Notes under the pieces: generated by a model
Seen by the model: the letters and a program-made list of their open reading frames with translations, nothing else
Told to the model about the DNA's origin: nothing
The model's database searches: none
Position numbers and translations under genes: made by a program
Source of the DNA: an uncultured Candidatus Saccharibacteria bacterium
GTDB taxonomy: Bacteria > Patescibacteriota > Minisyncoccia > Phycocordibacterales > UBA6065
DNA length: 14,313 bases
Assembly (NCBI GenBank): GCA_964627275.1
Contig: CAZVHT010000022.1
Location: 1 to 14,313, forward strand
Reading direction: 5' to 3'
Shown: piece by piece, positions 3,875 through 12,396 of the stretch
How the letters are laid out: each line of letters opens with the position of its first letter
Numbering within the stretch: position 1 is the stretch's first letter

Positions 3875-3948
3875 AGCGGGGTAGAGCAGCCTGGTAGCTC
3901 GTCAGGCTCATAACCTGAAGGCCGTGGGTTCAAATCCCACCCCCGCAA
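3875..3948 (+). tRNA. tRNA-Met (CAU), initiator-like
   Basis: Manual cloverleaf fold: acceptor AGCGGGG/CCCCGCA with a mismatched 1:72 pair, D arm GAGC/GCTC, anticodon loop CTCATAA, T arm GTGGG-TTCAAAT-CCCAC. The overall sequence closely resembles bacterial tRNA-fMet. CCA is not encoded. Confidence 0.9.
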
Positions 3949-4150
3949 CAAGTACGGACGGGTCAGTCAGAAATGTCTCATTTAGCCTGAATATAGGCGA
4001 CAGAACAGCGGTTCCAAAAGTTCCGGCTGTTTTGTTGTATGTGATACCACTCGGTAGCACCAGTTTTTGAAGCTTCTGTTTTTGTATCGGGTCCATGAAT
4101 CTCCATTGATTGGCGACGGAAAACTGGTATCTGAATAGTTCTGATACAAT
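3949..4150 (-). pseudogene. Possible C-terminal remnant of a site-specific recombinase abutting the tRNA-Met 3' end
   Basis: Minus-strand ORF 3908..4180 reads ...KQKLQKLVLPSGITYNKTAGTFGTAVLSPIFRL... From memory this resembles the K-x-x-L-x-x-L-V-F-P-x-G-I-x-Y...T-x-x-L/N-x-I-F segment near the C-terminus of some serine recombinases. No catalytic N-terminal part is present, and the ORF runs into the tRNA. Confidence 0.3.
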
Positions 4151-4157
4151 TGTATGA

Positions 4158-4670
4158 ATGAAAAAGCTATTCTTCCTCATTGGATCATCAGGCTCTGGAA
4201 AAACTACTGCGGCTAAAACAATCGAAGGAATGAATCTTTCGGATCTTGTTGTTCGCTATTCCGATAGCATTAAGGTTCCCTCAACGGAAGAAATGATTGA
4301 GAAACACGGTAGTCAAGAAGAATGGCAAAGGCAAAATACGATCATGTGGGTCAAGAAAATAAAAGAGAGTCATTTAGATAAGGAAGACGTTCTTTTTGAT
4401 ATCCAATCACGCCCAGCTTTTATAGATGAAGCTTGTACTAAAAATGCTATATCTACTTATGAGGTAATCTTATTTGATTGCTCCGATGATGAGAGAAAGC
4501 ACAGACTCATAAATGAAAGAAAACAGCCTGAACTCGCGAATAACCAAATGATGGACTGGGCACGATATTTGAGGGAACGATGTATTGGAAAGAATCATAC
4601 GATTCTTGATAACACCAACTACACGCCAGAAGAGAGTCTTAAGAAACTCATGGAGATAATGGAAAGATAA
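4158..4670 (+). CDS. P-loop NTPase / small kinase-like protein
   Basis: 170 aa with Walker A GSSGSGKTT at the N-terminus. Size and layout resemble nucleotide or small-molecule kinases. Confidence 0.7.
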   Translation: MKKLFFLIGSSGSGKTTAAKTIEGMNLSDLVVRYSDSIKVPSTEEMIEKHGSQEEWQRQNTIMWVKKIKESHLDKEDVLFDIQSRPAFIDEACTKNAISTYEVILFDCSDDERKHRLINERKQPELANNQMMDWARYLRERCIGKNHTILDNTNYTPEESLKKLMEIMER

Positions 4671-4675
4671 ACTTT

Positions 4676-5413
4676 ATGGCATCGCCAGAAATAAATTTTA
4701 AAGACTTACCGATAGGCCCATACACAGAAGATCTGTTGCAAAAACAATGGACTGGGGTCACTAACATCAAAGGTGTTAAAGAAGGACGTTGTGAGATAGT
4801 TGAGACCCACGGAGAAAAAGCCTTGCAAGTCACTTTTGTTAAAGGAAAGCTCGGTCCAACAGACGGCGGTGCTTCTTGGCGATACAGATTTGAGAAATCT
4901 TTTGAGGAGTTCACAGTCGGATACAAGGTGATGATGGCTAAAGATTTTAAACATGTAAGAGGAGGCAAACTACCCGGTCTCTGCGGTGGATCAAATCCAC
5001 GAGGAGGCACTCAAAATATCAGTGCAGATAATGGATTTTCTGCACGAATAATGTGGCGTGAACTTGGTGCATTAGAACAATATGTCTACTACGCCAATCA
5101 AGATCCGAAAAAGAAGCATGGGACCGATCTCTATTGGAAAGAAAAAGATAAACCCGTTTCTATCATTCCTGGTATTTGGTACACAATCAAGACGTATATA
5201 AAAATGAACACCGTCGGCCAGAAAAATGGAAAGATAATCTCTTGGCTCGACGGCAAAGAAGTCCTCAATGTAGATATTGATTTAAGGAATGACCCTTCAC
5301 TTGGCATTGATTCTTTTCAATTCGTCACATATTTCGGTGGAAACGACGAAACATGGTATCCAGAAAAGAACGAGAAAATATACTTCAAAGATTTCAGCTT
5401 CATTTCTTCGTAA
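4676..5413 (+). CDS. Polysaccharide lyase family 14-like protein
   Basis: 245 aa. Motifs GGKLPGLCGG, GFSARIMWR, W..DG and F.TYFGG..ETW.P match, from memory, the PL14 (alginate-lyase-like) domain. No obvious signal peptide. Confidence 0.6.
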   Translation: MASPEINFKDLPIGPYTEDLLQKQWTGVTNIKGVKEGRCEIVETHGEKALQVTFVKGKLGPTDGGASWRYRFEKSFEEFTVGYKVMMAKDFKHVRGGKLPGLCGGSNPRGGTQNISADNGFSARIMWRELGALEQYVYYANQDPKKKHGTDLYWKEKDKPVSIIPGIWYTIKTYIKMNTVGQKNGKIISWLDGKEVLNVDIDLRNDPSLGIDSFQFVTYFGGNDETWYPEKNEKIYFKDFSFISS

Positions 5414-5416
5414 TTT

Positions 5417-5950
5417 ATGGATATAGAAATCACAGAAGCAACCGTAAATGACGTAACTGGAATATCAGAAGTCCAAAAAGAGACGTGGCTTTCCACTTTT
5501 CCAAATGAGAAATACAACATCACACGCGAAGACATTTTGTCCGAAGATTTTTTCAGTAAAAACAGAATTGAAAAACGTAAGGAAATAATAAGCGATTCAA
5601 AATCCAATACTAAATTCTGGGTAGCGAAAAGCGACGCCAAAGTTATTGGGTATTGTTGTGCTCGGAAACTTGATGATCATAATAAAATCAGGTCAATTTA
5701 TATTCTCCCTGCTTTTCAGGGCAAAGGAATTGGCCAAAAACTCATGAGCAAGATGTTTGAATGGCTTAATCCTACAAAACCCACAAAATTAACTGTGGCG
5801 GTCTACAGCGACAAAGCAATCGCTTTCTATGAGAAGCTCGGATTCGTCAAAGGACAAAGACTCGCTAAAAATCCTGAAGGACCATTTATTACGGGCAAGG
5901 AAGTGCCTGAGATGGAGATGATAAAAGAACCTATAAAGAGGCCAAATTGA
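5417..5950 (+). CDS. GNAT family N-acetyltransferase
   Basis: 177 aa with acetyl-CoA-binding motif A, IYILPAFQGKGIGQKLM, and a FYEKLGF tail. Confidence 0.85.
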   Translation: MDIEITEATVNDVTGISEVQKETWLSTFPNEKYNITREDILSEDFFSKNRIEKRKEIISDSKSNTKFWVAKSDAKVIGYCCARKLDDHNKIRSIYILPAFQGKGIGQKLMSKMFEWLNPTKPTKLTVAVYSDKAIAFYEKLGFVKGQRLAKNPEGPFITGKEVPEMEMIKEPIKRPN

Positions 5951-5976
5951 GCCTTATTTTGAGAGCGCGGATATCC

Positions 5977-6005
5977 TTGACTTTTGTATGTTTTGGGTGT
6001 ATAAT
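5977..6005 (+). promoter_or_regulatory. Near-consensus sigma70-type promoter of the GC-rich operon
   Basis: TTGACT (5977-5982), a 17-nt spacer, then TATAAT (6000-6005). Confidence 0.65.
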
Positions 6006-6112
6006 AGTGTGTAGGATCTAAATACAGATAAAGCAAGGCAACACGCCAAGCAGTATTTGGAGAAGCTTCCCTACTGGGGAGTGTGGTTCAAAGGCCACAT
6101 AGTTCATCACAA

Positions 6113-6367
6113 ATGAAAAACGTTAGCATCGAAAACAGCCCAGTCGCTCAGAAACTCGCTGCAGCTACGCTTACCCGGGCCATCCGCAGCAAGTTCAACC
6201 TCTATCCCCACGAGCAGGCCAAGGGGATCCTCGATATGTGCAGGAAAGATGGCATCGATCCCGTGGAAGCCACGGAGTATCTCACCACCCAACTGCCGTC
6301 GATGATCACGGAGTTCCTTGTGGAAGTCCGTAAGCTCGTGGAAAAGGGTCGGACGGTCAAAGCTTGA
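6113..6367 (+). CDS. Hypothetical small protein, ORF a (84 aa from ATG 6113; ORF track gives GTG 6083)
   Basis: First ORF downstream of the consensus promoter, with GC-rich codon usage. Its stop (6365-6367) lies 5 nt before the next ATG. No family recognised. Confidence 0.55.
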   Translation: MKNVSIENSPVAQKLAAATLTRAIRSKFNLYPHEQAKGILDMCRKDGIDPVEATEYLTTQLPSMITEFLVEVRKLVEKGRTVKA

Positions 6368-6372
6368 GCACC

Positions 6373-6711
6373 ATGAAGACAATCATATCGAATCAGGTGC
6401 CTATGATCGATACCAAGTCAGGTCATTACTATGTCGAACTGGCAGATCATTGCCGAGTCGCGTTCGTAACGGATCTCGCTGGACGACACTGGGTCGAAAT
6501 CACACACATCAACCGGCCGGAGGGTAACCTTCGCCTCACCGTCAAGAGAAACTTCAAGGTGGCCATCTCTGAAGACTTCCTTTTGGAAGAATTCAACGAT
6601 CATGGTGGTAGTTGTTGGGGCATGAACAAGTGTGGTTTCCCCAAGGATATCCTCGGAGACATGGAGGGTTCTCATCTGAAAAGGGTTCATGTGACCCTCG
6701 AGCAGATCTGA
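6373..6711 (+). CDS. Hypothetical protein, ORF b (112 aa from ATG 6373; ORF track gives TTG 6364)
   Basis: Tightly coupled to ORF a with the same codon style. No family recognised. Confidence 0.55.
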   Translation: MKTIISNQVPMIDTKSGHYYVELADHCRVAFVTDLAGRHWVEITHINRPEGNLRLTVKRNFKVAISEDFLLEEFNDHGGSCWGMNKCGFPKDILGDMEGSHLKRVHVTLEQI

Positions 6712-6772
6712 CGTTTGACAACGAGTTGAAGGACTCACTAAAACTTTCAACCTAGGCCCCGATCGGTCTAGG

Positions 6773-6825
6773 TTCTGTCCGAAGATGTGTATCTTCGCTG
6801 ATGAGTCCTAAAGGACGAAACAGAA
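6773..6825 (+). ncRNA. Type III hammerhead self-cleaving ribozyme
   Basis: Stem III is TTCTGT (6773-6778) paired with ACAGAA (6820-6825). The cleavage triplet is GUC, with C17 at 6779. Stem I is CGAAGAT/ATCTTCG (6780-6786/6791-6797) with loop GTGT. The core CTGATGA is at 6798-6804. Stem II is GTCC/GGAC with loop TAAA (6805-6816). GAAA is at 6817-6820. All conserved core positions are canonical. Confidence 0.85.
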
Positions 6826-6920
6826 AGTTCTTTGAATAGTTGAGTTTGGAAGGAAAGAAGCGATTGACTTGCTGGCATAAAGCCATGCGAATCGTAGATT
6901 TCCTCACTAAACTCAACATC

Positions 6921-7340
6921 ATGAAAAAACAATTAATAAAAAAGAAAGTCAGCAAGAAAAAACCGTCTTTCGTGTTCATCGTCGATTCGTACGAGGATGG
7001 CACGCTCCGCCGTGGGCTCGAAGATATGGGGCTCAACCACGAAAACGACTACCACATCACAGGTGCTGGTGGTGCGGACTGGATCATGGCGAATTACGAA
7101 GGACGCCGTATCGCGGACACCCTGAATCTGCTCGTCGTCATGAGCACTTTTCACGGATCGGTCGCACCAGCGGTCGAGCTCTGCAAACAGGTGAAAGCGG
7201 TTAACTCCAAGGCGCGGTTTATCTTCCGGAGCCAGACCTCCAGCCCGTCCGATCCGTTATTCGAAGCCTGTATGGACAAGAGCTTCGAAGACAATAAAAA
7301 ACTCCTCGCGATCATCAAGAAGTTTTTTGGAAAGAAATAG
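6921..7340 (+). CDS. Hypothetical protein, ORF c, with a receiver (CheY-like)/flavodoxin-like pattern that lacks the phospho-acceptor Asp
   Basis: 139 aa from ATG 6921 (in-frame alternatives are ATG 6885 and TTG 6840). It has a Lys-rich N-terminus, then an alternating beta-alpha pattern: FVFIVDS, LNLLVVMS, ARFIFRS, then a Lys in MDKSF. The fold call is inference from this pattern only. Confidence 0.5.
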   Translation: MKKQLIKKKVSKKKPSFVFIVDSYEDGTLRRGLEDMGLNHENDYHITGAGGADWIMANYEGRRIADTLNLLVVMSTFHGSVAPAVELCKQVKAVNSKARFIFRSQTSSPSDPLFEACMDKSFEDNKKLLAIIKKFFGKK

Positions 7341-7395
7341 TGGTATACCCACTCGGTGAAGTAACCGTAGCGCAAGCTAGAAACTTTCAAAAACA

Positions 7396-7424
7396 CCGCA
7401 TGGTTCGCCCAGCGGTTTTGTTTT
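7396..7424 (+). terminator. Rho-independent terminator of the GC-rich operon
   Basis: CCGCatGG TTCG CCcaGCGG forms a hairpin with a UUCG tetraloop. TTTTGTTTT follows. Confidence 0.75.
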
Positions 7425-7463
7425 CGTCGGGATCGTATTCCTGCCAGGTGATATACTTTTCCC

Positions 7464-7985
7464 ATGTCAGATGCACAGAAGGTCGCAAAAACACTAACTC
7501 ACATAATAATCCCGCTTCTCGAAAAATATGATTTTCGATGGGTAATTACGGGTGGGTTTGCCTCTCATGTATATGGAGTGGAGCGTCCTATCACTGATGT
7601 GGATATAGACATCGACACCTCAAAGGACTCACCTGCCTTTAAAGCCTTCACAGGGGAACTCAAGGAATTTATTACCGAACCCCTCAATCATTTTGTTGAT
7701 CAGAATTACGATAACTATAATTTCGAAGTAACATTTGATGGCGTCATATTTGATTTCTGTCCAATGAAGGAGATGAACATTTTTGATAAGGAGACAAATA
7801 AATATATCCCGTTTTATGCAAACGGATTTCCTGATTCAGAAATGGTTGAATGGAATGGTCTTAAATTACCGCTTCTTTCAAAAGAACTCGTTATTAAAAA
7901 TAAAGAGATGTTGGTTTGGCAGAGAGAGTCAGACTTTAAAGATATTGAGCAGCTTAAGAAATTGAATAGTTTAGGTCTTAGATAA
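7464..7985 (+). CDS. Nucleotidyltransferase-fold protein
   Basis: 173 aa. The NTase signature GGFASHVYGVERPITDVDIDID fits G-[GS]-x(9-13)-D-x-D. An extended -10 (TGaTATACT, 7449-7457) ends 6 nt before the ATG, suggesting a leaderless mRNA. Confidence 0.7.
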   Translation: MSDAQKVAKTLTHIIIPLLEKYDFRWVITGGFASHVYGVERPITDVDIDIDTSKDSPAFKAFTGELKEFITEPLNHFVDQNYDNYNFEVTFDGVIFDFCPMKEMNIFDKETNKYIPFYANGFPDSEMVEWNGLKLPLLSKELVIKNKEMLVWQRESDFKDIEQLKKLNSLGLR

Positions 7986-8190
7986 TGACCGACCGACGGT
8001 TTTTCAAAGTCCCCCGCATCACCGCGGTGTGCTTTCTTTTATATAGTGAATTTAGAGGTAGGGTAAAACACAGGGATATAGATACTTGCATCATTCCTCC
8101 TCTCAAACACAGTTCTAACATCCTCCACGACGGCACCACATGTTTATTGCAAGTTGATCTAAAAACCTTTATCCCTAAACGTGAGTTTCA

Positions 8191-8346
8191 TTCTAATAAA
8201 AAGACGGGGTAGGTGGGGTTCCAAGAATATATAGTGCATCAGGCTGTATGTTGAAATTATTACATTGTCTCTCTAGCTAGTTCATACAAACCGCTAATAC
8301 TAGCCATTATCTGGTTCCAATCCTGTCCTACCTGTGCAACAATGAT
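8191..8346 (+). repeat. Copy A of a 156-bp direct repeat (candidate structured RNA or att-type junction)
   Basis: Colinear with 9364-9519 without indels, roughly four fifths identical by eye. Internal hairpin GCTAGT/ACTAGC (8276-8281/8299-8304). The 5' strand GGGGTAGG can pair with CCTACC(T) at 8327-8333. Confidence 0.7.
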
Positions 8347-8498
8347 CTGTACCCCATAAAGTGGACACGGAACGTGTATCTGCTTCCTTTTTGATTTTTT
8401 CACTTTCATTGAATAGGTCAGACATACGAGAATTATAACAAAGAACGTAATCTTGCATAAGGGTACCGTTAATGCTATATTTGCCGTGTATCAACACG

Positions 8499-8546
8499 AA
8501 AAGGGATCCGAAAGGTGTCTGTGCCTTAGGAGCCCTTTTCTTTTTT
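8499..8546 (+). terminator. Rho-independent terminator downstream of repeat copy A
   Basis: Long imperfect hairpin AAAAGGGaTCCgAAaGG ... CCTTaGGAgCCCTTTT, followed by CTTTTTT. Confidence 0.65.
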
Positions 8547-8652
8547 ATGCCACTCTATATAACTTTAAATTTTGCTTCGAGGTATACAGGATGCTTATAA
8601 ACATGATGTGGATAACTTAACCCTTATTTTAAGCCATATTTACAATATTTTA

Positions 8653-8680
8653 TTGCAATCTGGTGATAGTCGTGTATACT
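8653..8680 (+). promoter_or_regulatory. Promoter-like element facing the 3' end of the NYN gene
   Basis: TTGCAA (8653-8658), a 16-nt spacer, then TATACT (8675-8680). Confidence 0.4.
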
Positions 8681-8696
8681 ATTAGTAAGCAACTTC

Positions 8697-8719
8697 GCCG
8701 AGCCTTGTGCTCGGTTTTT
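8697..8719 (+). terminator. Rho-independent terminator (+ orientation), 5 nt beyond the NYN stop codon
   Basis: (G)CCGAGC cttgt GCTCGG(T) forms a hairpin followed by TTTTT. On the minus strand the hairpin is preceded by an A-run and not followed by a U-run. Confidence 0.65.
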
Positions 8720-8724
8720 CCGTT

Positions 8725-9354
8725 CTAGGGTTTTGGTTTTTTAATGACTGTTGGATTTCTCTCAACTGATTCTCTGATAGAATCAAGCGTCACATGCCAC
8801 GATTGCCTGAGTTCCCACGCAAACCCTTTCTCATAAGCTATAAACTTTACTCGCTTTCCTTTTTTCAGAATCTTGTCTTTTGTCCTCAGGAAATCACTAT
8901 CACCACTAAACACATAGACTATATCTAAATCCCCCAAGTCCTCCATAATTTCATCATGCATTTCAATATCGAAATTACATTTATTTCGATAGCCCTTTGG
9001 ATCAGATGGGTCTGTTATTCTCTTTAGGTCTTTAGTCGTAACATCATAACCGATTGATTTATAGTATTTCTCTAGTGTTTCAGCAATACTTCTCTCTGGT
9101 TCAGACCTTGGTTTACCCTTGTATATTCTAGCGTATTTTATTTCACTCAATTCTGAAACCCACGCTAATATTTTTTTGTAGTCACATAGCCACCCAGTAT
9201 CTTTTCCTCGTTTATACAAATTGGAATCATCTATATAAATACCCACCTTTGGTTTCGGGGGTAAAGTCTTTTTAAATTCGTATAACGATAAATATGAGCC
9301 TCTTGCCATGTCTTTTAAAATATCACGTATTTTTGTAGTTTTCAATATCGACAC
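8725..9354 (-). CDS. NYN (LabA/DUF88-like, PIN-related) domain putative ribonuclease
   Basis: 209 aa. VGIYIDDSNLY near the N-terminus and VFSGDSDF...L..GKRV later on are hallmark NYN motifs. The start is uncertain (GTG 9354 or ATG 9309), because a TATACT box abuts the GTG. Confidence 0.8.
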   Translation of the reverse strand: MSILKTTKIRDILKDMARGSYLSLYEFKKTLPPKPKVGIYIDDSNLYKRGKDTGWLCDYKKILAWVSELSEIKYARIYKGKPRSEPERSIAETLEKYYKSIGYDVTTKDLKRITDPSDPKGYRNKCNFDIEMHDEIMEDLGDLDIVYVFSGDSDFLRTKDKILKKGKRVKFIAYEKGFAWELRQSWHVTLDSIRESVERNPTVIKKPKP

Positions 9355-9363
9355 AGTATATTA

Positions 9364-9519
9364 ATTCTATTAAAAAAGGTGGGGTTGGTGGGGTTCCAAA
9401 GATATATAGTGCATCGGCCTGTAGGGTGAAATTACTAGAATGTTTCTCTTGTTAGTTCATAAAAACTACCAATACTAGCCACAATCTGATTCCAACCCCG
9501 TCCTACCTGTGCAACAAGA
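9364..9519 (+). repeat. Copy B of the 156-bp direct repeat
   Basis: Colinear with 8191-8346. GGGGTTGG (9380-9387) pairs perfectly with CCAACCCC (9491-9498). Internal hairpin GTTAGT/ACTAGC (9450-9455/9473-9478). The 3' end GTCCTACCTGTGCAACAAG resembles the tRNA-Met 3' end. Confidence 0.7.
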
Positions 9520-11255: not shown

Positions 11256-11329
11256 GCCAAAGTAGTTCAATGGCAGAACATTACTTTCGTAAAGTAGGAA
11301 TGTGGGTCCGATTCCCACCTTTGGCTCCA
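11256..11329 (+). tRNA. tRNA-Thr (CGU), CCA encoded
   Basis: Manual cloverleaf fold: acceptor GCCAAAG/CTTTGGC, D arm GTTC/GAAC, anticodon loop TTCGTAA, T arm GTGGG-TCCGATT-CCCAC (C at position 55, unusual), discriminator T, then CCA at 11327-11329. Confidence 0.75.
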
Positions 11330-11526
11330 TGAAATATACCCCATAAAGTGAAGTTATAATAAATATATGTACGATTTTGTAAGCAGTATAGCGAATGTAA
11401 TCGGGGAATACGTAAATAAACTGATTGACTTTTGCTCTGGAAAGAAAAATGAGCCGAAAACCGCTGTGCCAGATAAAATTGTCAATAAATCCAAACCGGC
11501 GACTTGGGTGAGAAAGAAGAAATAAA

Positions 11527-12396
11527 ATGAACAAGAATTCACAACGGATGTTGGAAATTGAAAAATTGATGGCCGATTCGGCTTTTTGGGAAAATAAAGA
11601 CCGCGCCCAGACTATTTTGAAGGAATTGAATGGTCTCAAGAGCGAGTTGGCCGAAGCGAACAAATTGGAAAACGGCAATGCCATCATCACTATTTTTTCC
11701 GGCGCCGGCGGAGATGACGCCGAAGATTTTTCTCGCATGCTTCTCCAAATGTACATGAAATACGCCGACAAACAGGGTTGGACTATACATTTTATGCATC
11801 AAAATCAGAATGATCATGGTGGTTATAGAAACGTGACATTTGAAGTTGTGGGAAAGAGCGTGTATGGAACACTTAAGAACGAGTCAGGCGTTCATCGTTT
11901 GGTGCGTATTTCACCGTTTAACGCCAAAAAGATGCGCCACACTTCCTTTTCTCTGGTAGAAGTCATTCCGAAGTTTGAAAAAATAGAACACATGCCTATT
12001 CCGCCGGAGGAAATCAGAATTGAATTCGCCAGATCGTCCGGTCCTGGCGGGCAAAATGTGAATAAACGCGAAACTGCCGTGCGCCTGGTCCACATACCCA
12101 CCAAAATCGCTGTTCATTCCGATTCCGAGCGCTCGCAAGCTCAAAATAGGGAACAGGCCATGAAAATCCTCTCGGCCAAACTCTATAAACTGCGCGAGGA
12201 CGAAAAAATCGCCCGCGAGAAAGGCATGTACATATCAAAAACCACGGACATAGAATGGGGCAATCAGATACGCTCATACGTTCTGCATCCGTATAAAATG
12301 GTCAAGGACCACAGGACGGACGCGGAAACTTCAAATGTGGATGCTGTATTGGGAGGGGAGATTGATTTGTTTATAGAGGCGGAAAAAGGGCTGTAA
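11527..12396 (+). CDS. prfB: Peptide chain release factor 2 (short form, 289 aa)
   Basis: SPF tripeptide (RISPFN), GGQ motif (GPGGQNVN) and a strongly RF2-like core. The N-terminal domain 1 is much shorter than in E. coli or B. subtilis RF2. Confidence 0.9.
   Translation: MNKNSQRMLEIEKLMADSAFWENKDRAQTILKELNGLKSELAEANKLENGNAIITIFSGAGGDDAEDFSRMLLQMYMKYADKQGWTIHFMHQNQNDHGGYRNVTFEVVGKSVYGTLKNESGVHRLVRISPFNAKKMRHTSFSLVEVIPKFEKIEHMPIPPEEIRIEFARSSGPGGQNVNKRETAVRLVHIPTKIAVHSDSERSQAQNREQAMKILSAKLYKLREDEKIAREKGMYISKTTDIEWGNQIRSYVLHPYKMVKDHRTDAETSNVDAVLGGEIDLFIEAEKGL

Follow-up and report, generated by a model that had tools for sequence, protein, structure and literature searches.

Type III hammerhead ribozymes are typical of viroids, satellites, and retrozymes. 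Intergenic hammerheads of bacteria and phages have been known since 2011, and the example described here does not define a new ribozyme class. Perreault et al. (2011) reported hundreds of bacterial hammerheads, many of which reside in prophages and often flank single genes or short gene blocks (PMC3088659). Three of these gene-flanking arrangements cleave while polycistronic RNAs of ~2 kb are transcribed in vitro, and HHphage, from the haloviruses HF1 and HF2, is located 13 nt before a start codon, with a mapped mRNA 5' end within 3 nt of the cleavage site (PMC3088659). The usual hypothesis is that hammerheads in bacteria and phages serve to split polycistronic transcripts (PMC3088659, PMC6765202). 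Weinberg et al. repeated this polycistronic-processing hypothesis in a 2019 review and stated that the purpose had yet to be concretely defined; the role of most self-cleaving ribozymes in bacteria and phages is unsettled (PMC6765202).

We examined a hammerhead in a window of 14,313 nt (the whole stretch of DNA that was analyzed) whose genes encode GatC, GatA, an RF2-like release factor, FtsE, FtsX, four tRNAs, and a MazF-like toxin. Judging from its sequence, the window is part of a Patescibacteria-like bacterial chromosome and not a phage, and a comparison of the whole window with cultured phages yielded only a tRNA-Met match. The ribozyme extends a phage-associated hammerhead subclass to a chromosomal operon of this apparently Patescibacteria-like bacterium, and no paper linking hammerheads and Patescibacteria was found in the literature searched. 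In addition to this host, the locus contributes an architecture with a hairpin directly upstream of the ribozyme, which is conserved in the subclass, and a set of orthologous junctions at which the ribozyme alternates with a terminator or promoter.

The locus resembles the prophage and bacterial clusters of Clostridium scindens, Azorhizobium caulinodans, and Agrobacterium tumefaciens, where hammerheads are also intergenic, lie among co-oriented genes, and have been proposed to cut a long transcript into mRNAs of gene or operon length (PMC3088659). Those clusters carry multiple copies (PMC3088659), a form of punctuation that is also seen in the group of viral contigs L001-L013 described below. 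By contrast, only one copy is present in the window, in a chromosomal operon near which no phage genes were identified. Also unlike those clusters, the closest homologous loci have a terminator or a promoter where the window has its ribozyme. As with HHphage, the hammerhead is located 5' of a gene and would set an mRNA 5' end. However, HHphage is a core variant positioned 13 nt from its start codon, whereas the window ribozyme has a canonical core and is separated from the ATG by ~95 nt that include a leader hairpin of ~80 nt.

Given the typical carriers of type III hammerheads, namely viroids, satellites, and retrozymes, one could propose that the motif is a processing site of a circular or mobile RNA of the viroid or retrozyme kind. 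We consider this barely credible. The window contains one hammerhead on one strand and none on the other, the ribozyme has no flanking repeats, and the locus lies in a bacterial chromosome with gatCA, prfB, and ftsEX, a context unlike that of viroid, satellite, or retrozyme hammerheads. Moreover, neither circular nor spliced products could be detected by Perreault et al. when they examined clustered hammerheads of bacteria (PMC3088659).

An earlier inspection of the DNA letters without database searches (the sequence-only reading) had proposed a complete type III hammerhead with all of its elements in the correct order. This proposal holds: each element can be read directly from the forward strand and the predicted fold matches (Table 1). 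The core (C3-U4-G5-A6-N7-G8-A9 and G12-A13-A14) is complete and aligns to the Rfam consensus at posterior '*', and the stem-closing pairs C6780-G6797 (N1.1-N2.1), G6805-C6816 (G10.1-C11.1), and A6820-U6778 are canonical. The ribozyme shares with the Rfam family RF00008 (clan CL00010) the core, the GUC triplet, A15.1-U16.1, G10.1-C11.1, capped stems I and II, and an open stem III. The two differ in that the consensus has a longer loop 2 region, whereas in the window ribozyme a 4-nt deletion reduces stem II to a minimal 4 bp capped by the loop UAAA.

Table 1. Positions of the ribozyme, its parts, and the surrounding genes and RNA elements in the window.
Feature	Position	Strand	Description
Promoter, sigma-70-type (TTGACT-17-TATAAT)	5977-6005	+	11/12 consensus positions
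ORF a 5' leader, predicted structured	6006-6112	+	~85-90% identical across ORF a loci, with paired substitutions
ORF a	6113-6367	+	84 aa; function not assigned; Patescibacteria/Saccharibacteria-conserved
ORF b	6364-6711	+	Orphan; 102 aa from ATG 6403 or 115 aa from TTG 6364
Hairpin 1	6725-6751	+	Weak; 3-nt overlap with hairpin 2
Hairpin 2	6749-6774 (A6749-C6758/G6765-T6774)	+	Up to 10 bp; last two pairs use T6773-T6774
Type III hammerhead ribozyme	6773-6825	+	Sequence reading, Rfam, folding, viral-only model
Stem III	6773-6778/6820-6825	+	6 bp; A15.1-U16.1 = A6820-T6778
Cleavage triplet (GUC)	G6777-T6778-C6779	+	C17 = C6779; predicted scission 3' of C6779 (6779/6780)
Stem I	6780-6786/6791-6797	+	7 perfect bp; loop GUGU
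Core CUGAUGA	6798-6804	+	Direct sequence reading
Stem II	GUCC 6805-6808, loop UAAA, GGAC 6813-6816	+	4 bp; G10.1-C11.1
GAA of core	6817-6819	+	Direct sequence reading
ORF c leader	6826-6920	+	AAGTTCTTTGAATAG segment and ~80-nt hairpin (6838-6918) ending 2 nt before the ATG
ORF c	6921-7340	+	139 aa; one homolog, 71% identical, in bacterial contig L014
ORF d	7464-7985	+	173 aa; weak nucleotidyltransferase-fold similarity (E ~0.01)
Terminator-like hairpin and T-run	8015-8031	+	First one downstream of the promoter

The cmsearch check proposed with that reading gave a positive but narrow result. The full RF00008 (Hammerhead_3) model matches 6772-6826 on the forward strand with 48.8 bits (E 2.5e-8 for the whole window), barely above the Rfam gathering score of 48.5 bits. 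This thin margin of 0.3 bits arises because stem II and loop 2 are together four nucleotides shorter than in the RF00008 consensus. Aside from tRNAs, the hammerhead is the sole Rfam match in the window, and a permissive Rfam search of 5800-8800 with E values up to 1 revealed neither a second ribozyme nor any other known RNA family.

Closer relatives are found in viral DNA. The 24-nt string comprising the core, stem II, and GAAAC has exact matches in 13 IMG/VR viral contigs (L001-L013), which define a subclass with a stem II of GUCC-UAAA-GGAC or a covarying equivalent, a loop 1 of UGUGU or UGAGU, and a stable hairpin directly upstream. A covariance model constructed from these hits revealed that several of the contigs have two to five hammerheads per locus, with the copies in L001, L003, L004, L007, L008, L009, and L011 spaced 0.3-3 kb apart. 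Only the identical pair L002/L012 among the 13 viral contigs scanned reaches the Rfam gathering score, and the short stem III of many members accounts for their lower scores. Variants occur as well, including CUGACGA cores (N7 = C) and a copy in L007 (7467-7531) with a U10.1-U11.1 mismatch closing stem II. Contig L002 also carries a Hatchet ribozyme (RF02678; 3955-4102, 67 bits) 3.3 kb from its hammerhead at 621-675, in line with the known tendency of different classes of self-cleaving ribozymes to cluster in phage-like DNA (PMC6765202). By comparison, a search of cultured phages with the 54-nt ribozyme produced only matches at E 0.3 located inside a protein gene.

The viral copies permit a test of the structure that does not depend on the window. 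In an alignment of 21 viral copies (A6), 94% of the pair cells are canonical, 12 of the 17 base pairs have changed on both sides, and stems I to III all covary. None of 500 shuffled alignments reaches the observed covariation score, and when partners are slid out of register at most 45% of them can pair. In a second alignment (A4), stem I is 100% paired and six of its seven pairs have changed on both sides. Furthermore, a covariance model based exclusively on the 21 viral hammerheads (R2) scores the window motif at 73.1 bits (E 4e-17), which is independent evidence that the motif falls within a conserved, structure-constrained ribozyme family. The core, stem II, and loop 2 of the window ribozyme are identical to those of the viral subclass, and stem I length, loop motif, and the upstream hairpin are alike. 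The viral members mostly have a stem III of 4-5 bp and often occur in several copies, whereas the window ribozyme has a 6-bp stem III and is present once in 14.3 kb. The spacing to the next gene also differs: an ORF begins 22-30 nt after the ribozyme (GAAAC) in 12 of the 21 viral copies, whereas the ATG of ORF c follows ~95 nt after GAAAC with an additional leader hairpin in between.

The subclass shows strong conservation of both loop 1 (U-G-N-G-U) and loop 2 (NAAA), which suggests a tertiary contact between them, of the kind that speeds hammerhead cleavage at physiological Mg2+; a Watson-Crick pseudoknot is not evident. When the 59-nt RNA spanning 6770-6828 is folded alone, the minimum free energy (MFE) and centroid structures are exactly the hammerhead three-way junction, with loops closing stems I and II and stem III open, as in the Rfam structure line. 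The marginal Rfam score and the z-score of this isolated fold (-1.8) could be cited in favor of a chance or decayed motif that does not cleave. We regard this explanation as very improbable in light of the E values from Rfam and from the viral model, the intact invariant core, the canonical closing pairs, and covariation both across the subclass and at an orthologous locus (see below). On these sequence grounds, the segment at 6773-6825 is a real type III hammerhead and the motif is far beyond chance.

Two hairpins had been noted upstream of the ribozyme, the second of which was thought to share T6773-T6774 with stem III and perhaps to compete with ribozyme folding. Both hairpins are present roughly as described, but they overlap by 3 nt and thus cannot be fully formed at the same time. 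The shared use of T6773-T6774 was found in the pairing, and hairpin 2 ends 5-6 nt upstream of C6779. Enforcing the structures demonstrates that an 8-bp form of hairpin 2 is compatible with a complete stem III. A stable hairpin is a regular companion of these ribozymes, as it precedes the cleavage site by 0-9 nt (median 4) in 22 of 23 copies (21 viral, the window, and the homologous contig L032), and in the viral relatives its 3' arm likewise abuts or overlaps the 5' strand of stem III.

In longer RNA contexts, the MFE structure differs from the hammerhead. Under a nearest-neighbor model whose energies include neither tertiary contacts nor co-transcriptional order, the hammerhead fold is 1.4-4 kcal/mol higher, and its helices have in-context equilibrium probabilities of 6e-4 to 0.03. 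The competing pairings are the full hairpin 2 or GGACUCA (6731-6738) with UGAGUCC (6801-6808). These low probabilities raise the question of whether cleavage is conditional. Hairpin 2, and possibly the 6731-6738/6801-6808 pairing, would then compete with stems III and II; transcription speed, temperature, Mg2+, or a factor would set the cleaved fraction, and what is regulated would be the proportion of full-length to split RNA. The shared nucleotides T6773-T6774, the retention of the AA/UU extension of hairpin 2 in L032, and the placement of the viral hairpins all agree with this proposal, and regulated cleavage of phage hammerheads has been raised before (PMC3088659). However, the overlap is just 2 nt and the 8-bp hairpin coexists with full stem III, L032 does not conserve the 6731-6738/6801-6808 pairing, neither a ligand-binding nor a sensor domain is apparent, and the hairpin overlap is explained equally well by trapping of the product after cleavage. 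Conditional cleavage thus appears unlikely to us, and it keeps some weight because the nearest-neighbor model omits tertiary contacts and the order of transcription.

The ribozyme was placed by the sequence-only reading between ORF b and ORF c of a three-gene operon. Its intergenic location stands, since the ORF b stop codon (6709-6711) precedes it and the ORF c ATG (6921), which alignment with the L014 homolog shows to be the start codon, follows it. The gene number needs revision: a fourth co-oriented gene, ORF d, lies before the first terminator-like site at 8015. The promoter upstream of ORF a is the only strong forward-strand match within 5800-8600 in a consensus scan, and the promoter and an element upstream of it are conserved at loci carrying ORF a homologs. 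Consensus scans found no promoter- or terminator-like site on the forward strand from this promoter to 8015. A single four-gene transcript is therefore the simplest reading, given one strong promoter, no terminator before 8015, and co-oriented ORFs. By this sequence-based argument, ORF a, ORF b, the ribozyme, ORF c, and ORF d are probably carried on one RNA, with ORF d as the probable last gene of the transcription unit.

Homologs of ORF a with 70-85% identity occur only in metagenome-assembled contigs of Patescibacteria or Saccharibacteria, and ORF a has no match in Pfam, PHROG, NCBIfam, or PADLOC. An HMMER search of 1.84 billion representatives with ORF b returned only itself and weak partial matches, and no ORF c homolog was found in GTDB genomes. 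Searches of PADLOC, Pfam, and NCBIfam gave no significant match that would identify ORFs a-d as a defense system or a toxin-antitoxin system. The region also stands out in composition, with a G+C fraction of ~0.50 at 6001-7500 compared with ~0.38 in the flanking kilobases, a compositional island that takes in ORFs a-c and some of the spacer ahead of ORF d. A large RNA similar to GOLLD, ROOL, or HEARO was considered for the G+C-rich portion at 6000-6830 and rejected, as no Rfam family other than the hammerhead was found there and ORF a is a conserved protein.

Upstream of ORF a, the leader of ~105 nt has conserved nucleotides that are also found upstream of the homologs in L023, L026, and L029-L034. 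Paired substitutions between loci (GCTTCCC-TACT-GGGGAGT versus GCCTCTC-TACT-GAGGGGT, and GTGG..CCAC versus CGGG..CCCG) point to a second structured leader RNA at this position.

Homologous loci also bear on the ribozyme. In contigs L032 and L033, the ORF a homolog is 85% identical and is followed directly after its stop codon by a hairpin and a hammerhead, the latter scoring 48.7 bits with Rfam in L032. Conservation of the core and covariation in the stems at such loci had been named as a check on the ribozyme, and both were found, in agreement with the covariation of stems I-III among the 21 viral relatives. Every core nucleotide in L032 and L033 is identical to that of the window ribozyme. 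Stem I differs between the window and L032 by two adjacent compensatory swaps (CGAAGAU/AUCUUCG versus CGAGAAU/AUUCUCG), loop 2 differs by a U-to-A change, and hairpin 2 is maintained through compensatory changes (GCC/GGT to ATCC/GGAT). Contig L032 lacks ORF b and its downstream gene is unrelated to ORF c, which implies that the ribozyme moves together with the ORF a module, on its 3' side.

No hammerhead was detected at the other ORF a loci. Instead, L026, L030, and L031 have a terminator 23 nt past the ORF a stop codon, whereas L023 has, by eye, a 12-bp G+C-rich hairpin followed by UUUUGUGU, which narrowly fails the T-run rule of the scanner. In L034, ORF a runs straight on into the next ORF. 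The ribozyme is thus present in two of the five ORF a lineages with readable downstream sequence, indicating that it is dispensable for this gene family.

A complementary picture is obtained from the ORF c side. The ORF c leader consists of a AAGTNCTTTNAATAG segment and a hairpin whose 5' arm (GGAAGGAAA) is paired with UUUCC and whose end adjoins the start codon. The same leader, with ~90% identity, is found in L014 (6034-6139), L021 (6270-6378, the same as in L018), and L022 (3190-3303), where it precedes an ORF c homolog in L014 and unrelated genes in L018/L021 and L022. It has no Rfam match and could be an undescribed cis-regulatory RNA of Patescibacteria. None of the leaders in L014, L018/L021, and L022 has a hammerhead, and each has a consensus promoter directly upstream (5992-6020 in L014). 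Homology between the window and L014 starts at ~6826, the 3' edge of stem III. The relatives consequently have either a terminator, on the ORF a side, or a promoter, on the ORF c leader side, at the junction that the ribozyme occupies in the window, which places the ribozyme at a transcript-boundary position.

Several other interpretations of this junction were discarded. The leader hairpin at 6839-6917 was rejected by eye as an integron attC site, since its GTTRRRY and RYYYAAC ends do not follow the order of such a site. An insertion of 6006-6826 with a target-site duplication relative to L014 was likewise rejected, since the promoter similarity on which it relied reflects a consensus reused across the genome (repeats D14 and D15). 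In that reading the duplication would consist of CTTTAAATAG-like segments, which are short, A+T-rich, and imperfect, and the event is retained only as an indel or a fusion of modules. The promoter core CTTGACTTTTGT and the upstream element AGCCTTATTT recur in the window and in related contigs (209-227 versus 5976-5994, and 1428-1446 versus 5941-5959). As judged from these recurrences, they are a strong-promoter consensus reused by the lineage, and they can mimic locus homology.

The distribution of the ribozyme also bears on whether it has any role in its host. A hairpin-ribozyme module derived from phage or mobile DNA might persist, active or not, as an evolutionary passenger with no selected role in host gene expression. 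This would fit the abundance of the subclass in viral contigs with two to five copies per locus in several of them, the single copy in a G+C-rich stretch of orphan or poorly conserved genes, and the lack of the ribozyme at most ORF a and ORF c loci. However, two loci that share only 85% identity in their ORF a proteins both retain an intact ribozyme, with compensatory substitutions between them. The ribozyme lies at the exact junction that holds a terminator or promoter in relatives, and preservation of the ORF c leader extends right to its edge. In addition, no relatives of ORF a, ORF b, or ORF c were found in viral contigs. We therefore hold a passenger origin of this kind to be quite improbable.

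Instead, we favor as the likely explanation that the motif is a genuine and probably active hammerhead that serves as a transcript-boundary element in a four-gene operon. The earlier suggestion that the ribozyme splits a polycistronic RNA and uncouples its halves is supported, as it fits both the single-promoter layout and the terminators and promoters at homologous loci; self-cleavage itself and its consequences for RNA stability and dosage are what we infer. In the proposed mechanism, the promoter at 5977-6005 would generate a single RNA carrying ORF a, ORF b, the ribozyme, ORF c, and ORF d. The ribozyme would fold co-transcriptionally as it emerges and cut between C6779 and C6780. The steps that would follow are proposed from the anatomy of the locus and from general knowledge of RNA decay. 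The upstream product with ORFs a and b would end in the 3' hairpin (6749-6774), followed by a short tail that bears a 2',3'-cyclic phosphate, mimicking the end left by intrinsic termination. Departure of the 7-nt stem III strand would allow hairpin 2 to gain two A-U pairs, which would trap the product and disfavor religation. The downstream product with ORFs c and d would have a 5'-OH and would open with the folded stem I/stem II scaffold, after which comes its native leader hairpin. The two RNA halves would then be free to differ in stability and translation.

The comparison among loci is a natural one: an ORF a module is followed by either a hairpin and hammerhead or an intrinsic terminator, and an ORF c leader is preceded by either a hammerhead or a promoter. 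It supports the view that ribozymes can act as post-transcriptional transcript boundaries and provides matched natural controls for tests of this view. More tentatively, the hairpin and hammerhead may constitute a portable punctuation module common to phages and Patescibacteria that replaces a terminator-plus-promoter pair. In this lineage, such a module would fuse the ORF a and ORF c leader units, once separate in transcription, under one promoter while still yielding an upstream mRNA that ends in a hairpin and a downstream mRNA that carries its native leader. We put this forward as a possibility that we doubt more than we believe. If correct, the pairs of loci with the ribozyme (the window and L032) and without it (L014, L023, and L026) would make the role of bacterial hammerheads directly testable. 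The module would also be a natural counterpart of synthetic ribozyme insulators. RiboJ is an engineered insulator of this type, in which the sTRSV hammerhead and a hairpin are located before a ribosome-binding site, and its cleavage strips variable upstream RNA and thereby fixes the 5' end of the downstream gene. The order of hammerhead, hairpin, and translation start is the same in RiboJ and in the window. However, RiboJ is engineered, whereas the window arrangement is natural and its hairpin is a pre-existing conserved leader that is also found without the ribozyme.

Assembly data drew our attention to the predicted cleavage site. Logan contig L015 (run ERR3478687) corresponds to 6779-8276 of the window, and its start coincides with the predicted site. 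A second contig from the same run, L016, corresponds to 3950-6803, crosses the site, and spans the untranscribed promoter region. Each contig has one end within the hammerhead, and the two share only 25 nt, with the 31-mers starting at 6774-6778 missing. We considered and rejected the idea that the L015 breakpoint records in vivo cleavage, given that L016 runs through the site to 6803 and covers the promoter region. This extent indicates that reads cross the site and that the ERR3478687 sample is probably DNA. No mention of this run was found in the literature searched. At its other end, L016 (1-28) diverges completely from the window (3922-3949) upstream of 3950, after which the two sequences are identical, with the junction exactly at the 3' end of tRNA-Met (3875-3949). 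This means either that a variable or integrated island follows tRNA-Met or that one of the assemblies is a chimera.

Additional observations concern the genes surrounding the operon. A PemK/MazF-like toxin gene (947-1333, Pfam E 1.2e-14) is located upstream of gatC. The RF2-like ORF (11527-12396) encodes 289 aa, and its best stretch begins at position 113 of the 353 positions in the prfB model. A programmed frameshift of prfB was considered, but no CUUUGAC-type shift site is visible upstream. Given the model start at 113 and no such site, the release factor seems to be N-terminally short. Finally, two direct repeats of 145 nt (8198-8342 and 9373-9517, 83% identical) bracket a minus-strand gene for an NYN-domain protein (8725-9354), and the first repeat partly resembles the 3' end and downstream flank of tRNA-Thr (8326-8363 versus 11313-11350). 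From their sequence, these repeats may have been left behind by an inserted element or may represent a duplicated attachment site.
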